Part shown: piece by piece, positions 31,431 through 33,847 of the stretch
How positions within the stretch are numbered: position 1 is the first letter of the stretch
How the letters are laid out: every line of letters starts with the position of its first letter
Assembly (NCBI RefSeq): GCF_003350925.1
Contig: NZ_KZ857174.1
Span: forward strand, 499,484-563,483
Direction of reading: 5' to 3'
DNA from: Dyella tabacisoli
GTDB taxonomy: Bacteria > Pseudomonadota > Gammaproteobacteria > Xanthomonadales > Rhodanobacteraceae
DNA: 64,000 nt
Position numbers and translations under genes: made by a program
The notes under the pieces: generated by a model
Seen by the model: only the letters and a program-made list of their open reading frames with translations
Databases searched by the model: none
What the model was told of the DNA's origin: nothing

Positions 31431-32570
31431 ATGTTCTGGAGCAAGCAAATCGTGATTGGCGACGGCGAGCGCGGTTTGCTGTATCGCAACCGTCGCTTCG
31501 AGCGCGTCCTGGTCGCGGGCGTGTACCGCTATTTTGATCCGGGTAACCAGTTGATGCTGAACGTGCACGACATCGCGCGGCCCGAGTACAGCGGCGGCGA
31601 CGCCGATGTGTTGATGGCGCAGATGGGCGGCGCGAAGGTCCATCCGTCATTGATGGGGAACTTTGTCGTCGCCGATATCGGTACGCGCCAGGTGGGCCTG
31701 GTGCTGAAGAACGGCAAGCTGGAAGACGTACTCATGCCGGGTACCCGCAAGCTGTACTGGAAGGCGCTGGTATCGGTGGAGGTGCAGGCCGTGCCGCTGG
31801 CTGAAACGCCTGAGGTCGAGGCTGCAGTGGCTAGCCGTCTGCGTCAGCTAGGGGTGCTGAGCAAGATCGCCGTGACGGTCGACGTGCCGGTGGAGTCCGC
31901 TGGGCTGTTGTTTGTCGATGGTCAGTTGCGGCGCACGCTGACACCGGGTGCTTATGCGTTCTGGAATTTTCAGAAGAACGTGACCATCGAGGTGATCGAC
32001 TTGCGCGTGCAGTCGCTGGAGGTCTCAGGTCAGGAGTTGTTGACGCGCGACAAGGTGAGTTTGCGGGTAAACCTGGCCGCCAGCTTGCGCGTGACCGATC
32101 CGGTCGCCGCACGAACGCGCGTGGTCAAGTACGCCGACTATCTGTACCGCGAGCTGCAATATGGCCTGCGTAAGGCCGTCTCGGCCAAGACGCTGGACGA
32201 GCTGCTGGGTGACAAGGTCTCGCTGGATGCGGACATTTTCGCTTATGTGCGTGGTCGTGTCGGCGAGTTGGGTCTGGAGGTGCTCGGCGTGGGTGTCAAG
32301 GACGTGATCCTGCCCGGCGAGATGAGGGACATTCTCAACAGCGTGGTGCAGGCGGAAAAGTCGGCGCAGGCCCAGGTGATTCGCCGTCGCGAAGAGGCGA
32401 ACGCGACCCGCTCCCTGCTCAACACCGCCAAGTTGATCGAGGGTAGCCCGGTGCTGATGCGCCTGAAGGAGCTGGAGGCCTTGGAGAAGGTCACCGAGAA
32501 GATTGGCAAGCTGACGGTGTTCGGGGGCCTGGATGGCGTACTGAAGCAGTTGGTGAGCTTGAAGACGTAA
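31431..32570 (+). CDS. SPFH/band-7 (stomatin/prohibitin-like) domain protein with no N-terminal TM anchor and a non-SPFH insertion in the N-terminal half
   Basis: 379 aa. The C-terminal half has SPFH core motifs (…ELLTRDKVSLRVNLAASLRVTDPV…VQAEKSAQAQVIRRREEANA…). The first gene after the AT-rich junction. Confidence 0.6.
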   Translation: MFWSKQIVIGDGERGLLYRNRRFERVLVAGVYRYFDPGNQLMLNVHDIARPEYSGGDADVLMAQMGGAKVHPSLMGNFVVADIGTRQVGLVLKNGKLEDVLMPGTRKLYWKALVSVEVQAVPLAETPEVEAAVASRLRQLGVLSKIAVTVDVPVESAGLLFVDGQLRRTLTPGAYAFWNFQKNVTIEVIDLRVQSLEVSGQELLTRDKVSLRVNLAASLRVTDPVAARTRVVKYADYLYRELQYGLRKAVSAKTLDELLGDKVSLDADIFAYVRGRVGELGLEVLGVGVKDVILPGEMRDILNSVVQAEKSAQAQVIRRREEANATRSLLNTAKLIEGSPVLMRLKELEALEKVTEKIGKLTVFGGLDGVLKQLVSLKT

Positions 32571-32626
32571 TATGCGATGCGGCTGGATGGAGTTAGCCGC
32601 ATCGCGCACCACCAAGGAAGAACATC

Positions 32627-33847
32627 ATGAGTACAGAGCATTACGAGTTGTTGCACGCCGAAGGCACCACTACGCCGATCAAGGGCTGGGTGCACGGCGT
32701 GCCGCTGGAAGAACAAGCACATCGGCAGTTGCAGAATATGGCCGCACTGCCATTCGTCGGCCCGTGGATTGCGGTGATGCCGGACGTGCATCTGGGCAAG
32801 GGCGCGACGGTGGGTTCGGTCGTGCCTACACGCGGGGCGATTATCCCGGCGGCCGTCGGTGTCGATATCGGCTGCGGCATGGCTGCGGTGCGTACCACGC
32901 TGCGGGCGAAAGATTTGCCGGACAATCTGGCGCAGTTGCGTTCGTCGATCGAGCGTGGCGTGCCGGTAGGCAATGGCCCCGGTGGCGATCATCGCCGGAT
33001 GCCCGACAGCATCGAGACACGGCTGACGCAATCGGGCCTGGTGCAGCAGTTGGAGGCGATCAAGGCCAGGCACCGCAAGATCCGTACTGACAAGGTCGAC
33101 CGGCAGATCGGCACGCTGGGCGGGGGCAATCACTTCATCGAAATCTGCCTCGACGAGTCGGATGCAGTGTGGGTAATGTTGCACTCCGGCTCGCGTGGCA
33201 CGGGCAATATGATCGGCACTTACTTTATCGAGCGGGCGCGCGAGGAGTTGGCGCGTCGGGTGCTGGGGTTTCATCTGCCTGACAAAGATCTGGCGTTTTT
33301 CATGGAAGGTGAGCCGCTGTTTGATGATTACGTCGAGGCGGTGAGTTGGGCTCAGGATTACGCCAGGCACAACCGTGAGGCGATGATGTCGCGGGTATTG
33401 CACGAGATGCGTCATCGCCTGCCGTCGTTTCAGCTAGAGAAGATGGCGGTCAATTGCCATCACAACTACGTGCAGCGCGAGACCCATTACGGCGAGTCGC
33501 TACTGGTCACCCGCAAGGGTGCGGTCAGTGCGCGCGAGGGTGAATTGGGCATTATTCCGGGCAGCATGGGCACGTGCAGCTACATCGTGCGTGGTAAGGG
33601 CAACCCGGATAGCTTCCATAGCTGCAGTCACGGCGCCGGCCGGGTGATGAGCCGTACGGCAGCCAGGCAGAACATCACCCTGAAGCAGCATCGCGAGGCA
33701 ACGGCTCATGTCGAGTGCCGCAAGGACGCCTCGGTGATCGACGAGTCTCCGGCAGCCTATAAGTCGATCGATGCAGTGATGGCGGCGCAGACCGATTTGG
33801 TCGAAGTGCTGCATACCTTGCGTCAGGTGGTTTGCGTGAAGGGTTGA
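32627..33847 (+). CDS. rtcB: RtcB-family RNA 3'-phosphate/2',3'-cyclic phosphate ligase
   Basis: 406 aa. MPDVHLGKGATVGSV, HSGSRGTGN, NCHHNY (H-N-H-like metal and GMP-His region) and SHGAGR, all typical RtcB motifs. Confidence 0.9.
   Translation: MSTEHYELLHAEGTTTPIKGWVHGVPLEEQAHRQLQNMAALPFVGPWIAVMPDVHLGKGATVGSVVPTRGAIIPAAVGVDIGCGMAAVRTTLRAKDLPDNLAQLRSSIERGVPVGNGPGGDHRRMPDSIETRLTQSGLVQQLEAIKARHRKIRTDKVDRQIGTLGGGNHFIEICLDESDAVWVMLHSGSRGTGNMIGTYFIERAREELARRVLGFHLPDKDLAFFMEGEPLFDDYVEAVSWAQDYARHNREAMMSRVLHEMRHRLPSFQLEKMAVNCHHNYVQRETHYGESLLVTRKGAVSAREGELGIIPGSMGTCSYIVRGKGNPDSFHSCSHGAGRVMSRTAARQNITLKQHREATAHVECRKDASVIDESPAAYKSIDAVMAAQTDLVEVLHTLRQVVCVKG

Follow-up and report, generated by a model that had tools for sequence, protein, structure and literature searches.

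We examined a 64,000-nucleotide stretch of the Dyella tabacisoli genome (assembly GCF_003350925.1, contig NZ_KZ857174.1, positions 499,484 to 563,483; hereafter the window, with positions counted from its first letter) in which three co-oriented elements lie side by side, namely a structured RNA of about 0.55 kb, a gene for an SPFH/Band-7 protein, and a gene for the RNA ligase RtcB (Table 1). A first-pass annotation made from the letters alone had picked out the two genes, separated by 56 nt, as an RNA-repair module with an unusual partner. Both open reading frames (ORFs) proved to be real, their positions exact and the 56-nt gap correct; the RNA gene with two tRNA-like modules directly upstream of the SPFH gene had been overlooked. 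ORFs of at least 90 amino acids (aa) were called across the 64-kb window with a caller filtered on GC at third codon positions (GC3), and all 45 ORFs picked were scanned against Pfam.

Table 1. Features of the RNA-SPFH-RtcB locus of D. tabacisoli in window coordinates (the ends of the RNA are approximate)
Feature	Position	Strand	Evidence or remark
5' domain of the RNA	30730-30880	+	Alignment A4, RNAalifold
5'-domain helices: hairpin; P1; P2	30730-30743; 30751-58/30767-74; 30779-84/30871-76	+	
5'-domain helices: P3; P4	30795-800/30856-61; 30803-11/30819-26	+	
Invariant CCGGUGC-hairpin-UAUGCCG element (P5/P6, 30827-37/30841-52)	30824-30855	+	
tRNA-like module E1	30881-30950	+	ARAGORN 'tRNA-???'; Rfam tRNA, 48 bits
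tRNA-like module E2	30951-31023	+	ARAGORN tRNA-Asn; Rfam tRNA, 59.6 bits
3' domain of the RNA	31024-31290	+	RNAalifold, alignment A4
3'-domain helices: hairpin; GNRA hairpin	31022-27/31035-40; 31045-49/31054-58	+	
3' long-range closing helix, around two inner helices	31065-75/31263-73, around 31124-41/31242-59 and 31146-50/31233-37	+	
U-rich tract	31274-31290	+	After the 3' closing helix
Spacer and SPFH 5' untranslated region	31291-31430	+	Ribosome-binding site AAGGAG, 31418-31423
Soluble SPFH/Band-7 ('slipin') protein, 379 aa	31431-32570	+	Pfam, AF2, Foldseek
Intercistronic stem-loop (perfect 11-bp stem, 10-nt loop, no U-tract)	32574-32605	+	Sequence
RtcB RNA ligase, 406 aa	32627-33847	+	Pfam RtcB, alignment to 2epg

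The product of the first gene is 100% identical to a D. tabacisoli protein that NCBI names 'slipin family protein'. The Pfam Band_7 profile (PF01145) matches it at E = 5e-29 over residues 152-323 only, and the fold matches stomatin and HflK/C, in agreement with its initial designation as SPFH-like. The absence of an N-terminal transmembrane helix, also part of that designation, was borne out: the Kyte-Doolittle mean over 19 residues peaks at 1.33, and the AF2 model (mean predicted local distance difference test, pLDDT, 92.8 from a 67-sequence alignment) begins with beta strands at pLDDT >90 in place of the membrane anchor of membrane SPFH proteins. The supposed insertion of about 140 aa fared less well, in that an extra ~150 aa are indeed present but constitute an N-terminal extension of two beta-strand repeats rather than an insertion. 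These repeats of ~70 aa (residues 4-47 and 78-122), each with five beta strands and two short helices, are followed by a third beta unit (residues 147-190) that merges into the SPFH core (194-293), and after the core come a 43-residue helix (296-338) and two shorter C-terminal helices.

In Foldseek searches with the full model, stomatin, HflK/C, prohibitin and erlin aligned with E values from 1e-15 to 1e-11 over the C-terminal ~240 columns, and alignments to MVP, the only chains to exceed the length of the query, ran to 454-479 columns (gaps included) at E of about 1e-11. When the N-terminal 148 aa were modelled alone (pLDDT 91), the best Foldseek E was 0.02, with no significant match in the PDB and no MVP among the top 50 matches, confident local matches being confined to stomatin and HflK, in each case to the first beta unit. 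Furthermore, Band_7 profile positions 3-25 match residues 83-108 (E = 0.002), and residues 15-48 resemble residues 158-191 (E = 5e-4). Because the N-terminus thus matches the stomatin/HflK unit, the start of Band_7 and the protein's own third unit, the extension is best seen as two extra copies of the first SPFH beta unit that arose by duplication. The Pfam Vault and MVP_shoulder profiles matched neither this protein nor the long members of its family of up to 894 aa, in which Band_7 alone was found; an identity of the N-terminus with MVP repeats is thus unsupported by Pfam as well as by the Foldseek search with the N-terminus alone, and the likeness to MVP is architectural, repeat homology not having been demonstrated.

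The family is large, with 569 sequence-cluster representatives scoring E <= 1e-30, and the full-length architecture recurs among the best-scoring of them. The N-terminal region is highly variable in length: eight members of 500-894 aa (P0123, P0132, P0140, P0197, P0215, P0239, P0258 and P0259) carry more N-terminal beta repeats, with 2-6 matched stretches, and up to ~660 aa precede the SPFH domain in the 894-aa member. Sixty-seven diverse full-length homologues were aligned and used to fetch 80 related loci, one genome per species (L numbers below), which span Gamma-, Beta- and Alphaproteobacteria, Chloroflexota, Acidobacteriota and others.

RtcB seals RNA ends bearing a 3'-phosphate or 2',3'-cyclic phosphate to 5'-OH ends. 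The window RtcB matches PF01139 at E = 2e-124 over the whole profile, and in alignment with Thermus thermophilus RtcB (2epg) its metal and GMP-histidine motifs (GVDIGCG, GGGNHF, HSGSRG, HHN and SHGAGR) are intact. The spacer ahead of rtcB carries an AAGGAAG ribosome-binding site in addition to the stem-loop. A GC-rich hairpin of 9-14 bp, usually without a U-tract, occupies the SPFH-rtcB spacer of most loci in which the two genes are directly adjacent (the window, L002, L004-L007, L012, L013, L015, L016, L026, L027, L040, L041, L063 and L074), kept in position but differing in sequence between loci. Such a hairpin would fit a structural protein expressed above an enzyme; its role may lie in differential expression or in stabilisation. 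Co-transcription of the two genes, as first proposed, is inferred from their shared strand, their short gap and the lack of a terminator.

Upstream of the SPFH gene, the structured RNA consists of a 5' domain, the modules E1 and E2, and a 3' domain. E1 and E2 are abutting tRNA-like cloverleaves (ARAGORN and Rfam) that end 408 nt before the SPFH start. In E1 the D- and T-arms are canonical, the acceptor stem is 6 bp long with A1 and A72 mismatched, and the 'anticodon' loop has 6 nt (CUUACG). A-ACA comes next, in place of the encoded N-CCA that abuts E2 directly in many relatives. E2 joins E1 with zero spacer; its acceptor stem is limited to 5 bp (UUGGA/UCCAA), a CCA is lacking, and its loop of 7 nt, CUGUUAA, has an Asn-GUU reading. 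The 7-bp acceptor stem, 7-nt loop and conserved anticodon of genuine tRNAs are thus not found together in the pair. Across loci the E1 acceptor stem is typically 6-7 bp long and that of E2 4-5 bp, the latter covarying (UGGA/UCCA, UCGA/UCGA, GCUA/UAGC, UCCA/UGGA), and the orthologous E2 'anticodons' would read Lys, Thr, Met, Ile, Leu, Gly, Glu and others, or are replaced by tetraloops. The anticodon stems covary while the loops they carry differ even in sister species, some being UUCG or GAAA tetraloops. Neither E1 nor E2 is a decoding tRNA. A covariance model of the dimer (R1) scores 143 bits at the window pair; R1 also matches pairs of ordinary tRNAs in arrays, however, and is therefore non-specific on its own.

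The whole intergenic region was aligned across Xanthomonadales (alignment A4) and the dimer separately (alignment A2). Conservation in A4 reaches ~150 nt 5' and ~270 nt 3' of the cloverleaves. For the double cloverleaf (A2) there were 40 pairs, 26 of them compensatory, with 89.5% of alignment cells paired as against 37-49% when partners were slid, and a covariation score of 0.530 as against no more than 0.179. RNAalifold gave 39 pairs for the 5' domain (18 compensatory; 93.5% of cells paired versus 33-46% slid; covariation score 0.371 versus <=0.096) and 38 for the 3' domain (22 compensatory; 90.8% versus 38-49%; 0.451 versus <=0.154), the structures of these two domains having been derived from the same alignments that were used to test them. 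None of 500 shuffles equalled the observed score in any of the three parts. Of 66 loci, 36 carry the 5' core motif ahead of E1, with no reverse-strand instance, and the Burkholderiales 3' domain, with 45 pairs (24 compensatory), has the GNRA hairpin and the long-range closing helix in common with that of Xanthomonadales. In Rfam 15 only the generic tRNA model matched, with no family for the 5' and 3' domains; the hits to YrlA, Tymo_tRNA-like and Plastid-ycf2 were sub-threshold noise. The RNA is therefore unmarked by Rfam, as it is by genome annotation. Its U-rich tract may be a terminator or an attenuator.

Just before the SPFH ribosome-binding site, a stretch at 31395-31423 with the consensus GGATCGGACCACCAGAGCCAACAAGGAG is kept across Xanthomonadales, the preceding ~100 nt not being so; it forms the last block of A4, reads GACCACC.AGA...AAGGAG, and may be a regulatory or pairing site. 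At the other end, past the stop codon of the gene upstream of the RNA, there is a sigma70-like promoter match at 30248-30276, followed by a possible ORF of ~40 codons from 30353 and a strong terminator-like hairpin at 30516-30549 (14 bp with a T-run), so that 30248-30559 could be a small separate transcript ahead of the RNA gene.

The order and orientation of the RNA and the SPFH gene are widely conserved. In 74 of 81 loci the SPFH gene is preceded, at a distance of no more than 900 nt, by a co-oriented tRNA-like gene, and the T-loop motif GGTTCRANNCC occurs exactly twice upstream, 43-79 nt apart (mostly 62-79), in 67 of 80, with a single instance on the reverse strand across the 80 loci; the tandem pair is therefore the rule. 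RtcB was found within 4 kb of SPFH in 42 of the 68 loci with enough flanking sequence, and directly 3' of it, at a gap of no more than 190 nt, in 26 of those 42. The SPFH-linked RtcB proteins are 56-88% identical to the window RtcB, and identities of SPFH and RtcB to their window counterparts co-vary (rho = 0.81, n = 42). The adjacency, conserved across Gamma- and Betaproteobacteria, is thus not sporadic, a point on which the proposal of an RNA-repair module pairing RtcB with an SPFH partner had been made to depend and on which that proposal was upheld.

Fragments of rtcB persist 3' of an intact RNA and SPFH gene in L009 (5182-5253), L053 (5410-5607), L033 (6009-6212) and L014 (5202-5981), and in Luteimonas lutimaris a 24-codon rtcB remnant survives. 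RtcB has been lost repeatedly with the RNA and SPFH core kept. Since loci without RtcB hold either unrelated genes or decayed rtcB, RNA plus SPFH is the invariant core, and RtcB, RtcA, RlaP and RtcR are frequent modular additions. Recurring neighbours included a divergent RtcR in 17 loci, RtcA in 11 and the nucleotidyltransferase RlaP in 5, counts that are lower bounds because ORF calling took antisense shadow ORFs in GC-rich loci.

In rtcR-bearing loci a sigma54 promoter (TGGCAC-N5-TCGC or TTGC) is located ~130-150 nt upstream of the RNA, and the RNA is therefore transcribed together with SPFH-RtcB-(RlaP)-RtcA under RtcR. Burkholderiales and Pseudomonas show the full arrangement, with divergent rtcR, the sigma54 promoter, RNA-SPFH-RtcB, and then RlaP and RtcA. 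The window, by comparison, is sparse. As first stated for rtcA, rtcR and prfH, the Pfam scan of its 45 called ORFs revealed no RtcA (RTC domain), RtcR (Sigma54_activat), PrfH, archease or TROVE domains. The sigma54 promoter that had been suggested as a check upstream of 31431 did not materialize, since TGGCAC-N5-TTGC was absent with up to 2 mismatches from the plus strand of 30252-31430, and no sigma70 promoter was identified for the RNA. Because Burkholderiales and Pseudomonas keep RNA-SPFH-RtcB behind rtcR and a sigma54 promoter and ahead of RlaP and RtcA, the lack of rtcA and rtcR in Dyella is a lineage-specific reduction, and the Dyella locus is a reduced form of the rtcR/sigma54-controlled arrangement. 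In three Chromatiales/Methylococcaceae loci without RtcR, a small divergent regulator of the HTH_31 (XRE) type stands upstream of the RNA (L030 1061-1705, L032 2313-2936, L053 2473-3066, (-)) and is a possible alternative regulator of the module.

Other recurring companions of the RNA are tRNA genes. Same-strand arrays of 3 to ~20 canonical tRNA genes are situated just upstream of RNA-SPFH (upstream of about position 3500) in L017, L023, L024, L027, L028, L029, L033, L040, L047, L048, L057, L060 and L069, and a gene for an HNH endonuclease lies between array and RNA in L024, L033, L036, L040, L048 and L060; in about 13 loci tRNA array, HNH, RNA, SPFH and RtcB are clustered side by side. A comparable set of genes responds to translational stress in Anabaena, where the TrcR regulon, derepressed in a trcR mutant and by the translation-targeting antibiotic chloramphenicol, includes the slipin operon alr0739-0740 (71- and 42-fold), rtcB (77-fold), an HNH endonuclease (17-fold) and a 26-gene tRNA array (PMC10272220). 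This regulon offers circumstantial experimental support for a link of the module to stress, with alr0740 as a candidate member of the family.

The pairing of RtcB with an SPFH protein is not new, contrary to its description as unusual in the first-pass annotation. As relayed by Wang et al. (bioRxiv 10.1101/312249), Burroughs & Aravind (2016, NAR) described RtcB beside a Band-7 protein and a tRNA-like non-coding RNA (ncRNA), b7a-tRNA, and a 2026 preprint (PMC13404743) likewise credits them with 'MVP homologs' whose operons also contain ncRNAs and RtcB, so that the pairing had already been predicted in silico. We are confident that the D. tabacisoli locus belongs to this predicted Band-7/b7a-tRNA/RtcB system, as a Band-7 protein, an adjoining tRNA-like ncRNA and an adjacent RtcB are all present, and it is a new, reduced member. 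In the system as relayed, too, the RNA travels with Band-7, and the links to RtcA, RtcR and RlaP fit its modular 'syntax'. The window version differs in having a tandem pair with acceptor stems of 6 and 5 bp set in covarying domains, and in lacking RtcA, RtcR and the sigma54 promoter. The size and structure of the RNA exceed what the name b7a-tRNA implies, and tandem sub-canonical modules within a covarying RNA of ~0.55 kb may go beyond the published description. The searchable literature yielded no experimental test of the system, and none under RNA-damage conditions; the only functional study found on a gene from an rtc-SPFH context concerned Pseudomonas aeruginosa PA14_60630 (PaFlo8), which sits inside the rtc locus (PMC13086221).

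The best explanation for these observations, which we regard as probable though well short of assured, is that D. tabacisoli here carries its copy of a three-part module in which SPFH protein and RNA would form a scaffold for tRNA repair by RtcB. In solved SPFH assemblies and in MVP, the helix after the core is the element through which rings or domes are built. The window protein would similarly oligomerise through its long C-terminal helix into a cytosolic ring or dome, which would bind the upstream structured RNA to yield an RNA-protein particle; a cytosolic particle of this kind is suggested by the missing anchor, the wall-extending repeats and the obligatory co-oriented structured RNA. 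The particle could then act as a scaffold or cofactor that recruits broken tRNAs, or presents their tRNA-shaped ends, to RtcB, which would seal them during translational stress or ribotoxin attack. A role in repair is suggested because the frequent partners RtcB, RtcA, RlaP and RtcR all act in the healing and sealing of RNA ends. The scaffold or cofactor mechanism itself is proposed more tentatively, as a serious possibility rather than a probability.

The analogy underlying this proposal is the Salmonella Ro60/Y-RNA unit, which lies beside RtcB and has been proposed as an RtcB cofactor. The rsr-yrlA/yrlB-rtcBA unit of Salmonella resembles the window module in combining, in one co-oriented unit, the gene of a ring or scaffold protein, an ncRNA with tRNA-like modules and RtcB, and, in relatives of the window module, in being under RtcR/sigma54. 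It differs in that the partner in the window is SPFH and not Ro60, no TROVE domain being present, and in that the YrlA model (RF02553) gives 23.7 bits at the window RNA against a gathering score of 69. With the rtcBA-rtcR operon of Escherichia coli and Salmonella the locus shares the family and active site of RtcB; RtcA, RtcR and the sigma54 promoter are missing from the window, and in relatives (e.g., PaFlo8 of P. aeruginosa) the SPFH-RNA unit is inserted into the rtcBA-rtcR operon itself. The canonical membrane SPFH proteins (stomatin, HflK/C, prohibitin and QmcA-YbbJ), which head the Foldseek results, share the SPFH core and the long C-terminal helix, which is the oligomerisation helix in these proteins, but the window protein has no N-terminal transmembrane or hairpin anchor, no link to FtsH and no NfeD partner (no NfeD domain was found among Pfam-scanned neighbours), carries two added N-terminal beta units, and has an RNA and an RNA ligase as its genomic partners.

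The eukaryotic vault (MVP, vault RNA and TEP1) is similar in its N-terminal beta repeats, SPFH-fold 'shoulder', long helix, associated small RNA and lack of a membrane anchor, whereas the N-terminal repeats of the window protein alone fail to retrieve MVP and the cage of the window protein is putative. A bolder form of the proposal, which we consider doubtful, is that the ornate RNA and the anchor-less SPFH protein build a soluble vault-like cage that houses or feeds RtcB within a translational-stress regulon. If so, bacteria would have their own counterpart of the eukaryotic vault, possibly even its forerunner, and the particle would be one element of a wider regulon for translational stress to which back-up tRNA arrays also belong. 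A soluble SPFH cage around an RNA would bear on how vaults arose and what they do. Which RNAs bacterial RtcB repairs, and why a scaffold protein and a tRNA-shaped RNA so frequently accompany it, are standing questions, for which the Dyella locus, with RNA, SPFH and RtcB but neither RtcA nor RtcR, offers a compact and genetically tractable version.

Several points weigh against a scaffold for RtcB. No RtcB is nearby in 38% of loci, which have unrelated genes downstream, and the core function therefore need not be ligation. Deletion of PaFlo8 had no phenotype in growth, virulence, motility, biofilm formation or oxidative stress, RNA-damage conditions not being among those tried (PMC13086221), and Anabaena alr0740 is only a candidate orthologue of the SPFH family. 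Binding of RNA or RtcB by the SPFH protein, and a soluble cage, are things that we only infer. Finally, the RNA is always upstream of SPFH and co-oriented with it, and in Burkholderiales it extends to the ribosome-binding site without a U-tract or terminator; given this strict arrangement, a cis-acting leader fits equally well.

Such a leader, instead of serving as a partner RNA, would govern how strongly the SPFH-RtcB mRNA is expressed or how stable it is, whether as an attenuator, as a sensor of tRNA or RNA damage, or as an RNase P/Z processing cassette. The position of the RNA between the sigma54 promoter and the SPFH start in rtcR-bearing loci would suit it, as would the attenuator-like succession of 3' closing helix and U-rich tract in Xanthomonadales. 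However, two full cloverleaves and ~115 covarying pairs in ~0.55 kb are far beyond the complexity of known leaders, and in the sister system yrlA and yrlB, inside rsr-rtcBA, are co-transcribed and then act in trans. A leader in place of a partner RNA is thus unlikely in our judgement, and cis and trans roles are in any case compatible with each other.

Alternatively, the tRNA-like modules could lure anticodon nucleases and other toxins that target tRNA, as baits or decoys whose cleavage would signal damage (e.g., to RtcR) or soak up the toxin and which RtcB would re-seal. Loops that differ between close relatives (UUU in L008 and GUU in L009; CUU in L015 and CGU in L016) on stems kept by compensation would be expected of a bait, and the module is linked to back-up tRNA arrays and to RtcR, which is reportedly activated by tRNA fragments (PMC7790460). 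But UUCG or GAAA tetraloops and loops of 5-6 nt (L055, L061, L039 and window E1) cannot mimic an anticodon loop, the variation resembles relaxed constraint more than an arms race, and the SPFH protein and flanking RNA domains are left unexplained; moreover, a bait that sits behind the RtcR promoter is not the primary sensor. We consider a bait quite improbable. Mere coincidence, in which an integration hot spot brought a membrane-organising slipin next to an RtcB with no relation to it and to a pair of degenerate tRNA genes, might be read into the bare NCBI label, the frequency of tRNA genes at island borders and the tRNA-Asn call for E2, but it is effectively refuted by an order and strand kept in 74 of 81 loci across phyla, together with the missing anchor and NfeD, the sub-canonical acceptor stems, unconserved anticodons and covarying flanks, and a window with no GC anomaly and no integrase among scanned ORFs.

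The surroundings of the RNA-SPFH-RtcB module are ordinary chromosome. The window has a flat GC content of 0.55-0.62 and housekeeping genes (uvrB, thrS-infC-rplT-pheST-ihfA and queA-tgt-yajC-secDF), and neither integrase nor transposase was found among the ORFs scanned. The gene for a PIN RNase that had been placed with SPFH-RtcB in one island does exist (39998-40531), but it lies 6 kb away beside queA-tgt and is absent from the recurring neighbour clusters of the 80 related loci; with flat GC and housekeeping flanks besides, the island and the PIN link are unsupported. An anti-phage defence assignment was rejected after PADLOC gave no match for SPFH, RtcB or the neighbouring DUF3142 protein, and a phage origin after 50,697 phage records, searched by tblastn with the SPFH protein, gave zero matches. 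The protein's 'plasmid' matches were mostly to megabase-size replicons, i.e., chromids or misassigned chromosomes.

The DUF3142 protein is encoded 3' of rtcB at 33980-35164, ahead of a tandem pair of large ORFs (35151-37166 and 37177-39702) without a Pfam match, which by eye have long stretches in common and each end in a hydrophobic tail and an R/K-rich C-terminus. DUF3142 was found 3' of rtcB only in the window and in a Dyella metagenome-assembled genome (L026), and as parts of the module it and the two downstream paralogues were rejected, since they recur solely in the latter.

A slipin gene of E. coli has a comparable setting. In 1425 of 5426 complete E. coli genomes (26%), an island between yjbD and lysC carries a slipin, a nucleotidyltransferase and a zeta-toxin-family kinase (e.g., L081, and L082 from the WAT chromosome, NZ_CP012380.1, 1500-5060), with a 530-nt gap before the slipin gene that PGAP leaves empty. 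ARAGORN, Rfam and the dimer model gave no match in this gap. It does contain a sigma54-type promoter, TGGCACGCTTCTCGC (L082:1716-1730), and a single T-arm-like sequence, GGGTTCGATTCCC, and may hold a reduced form of the RNA.

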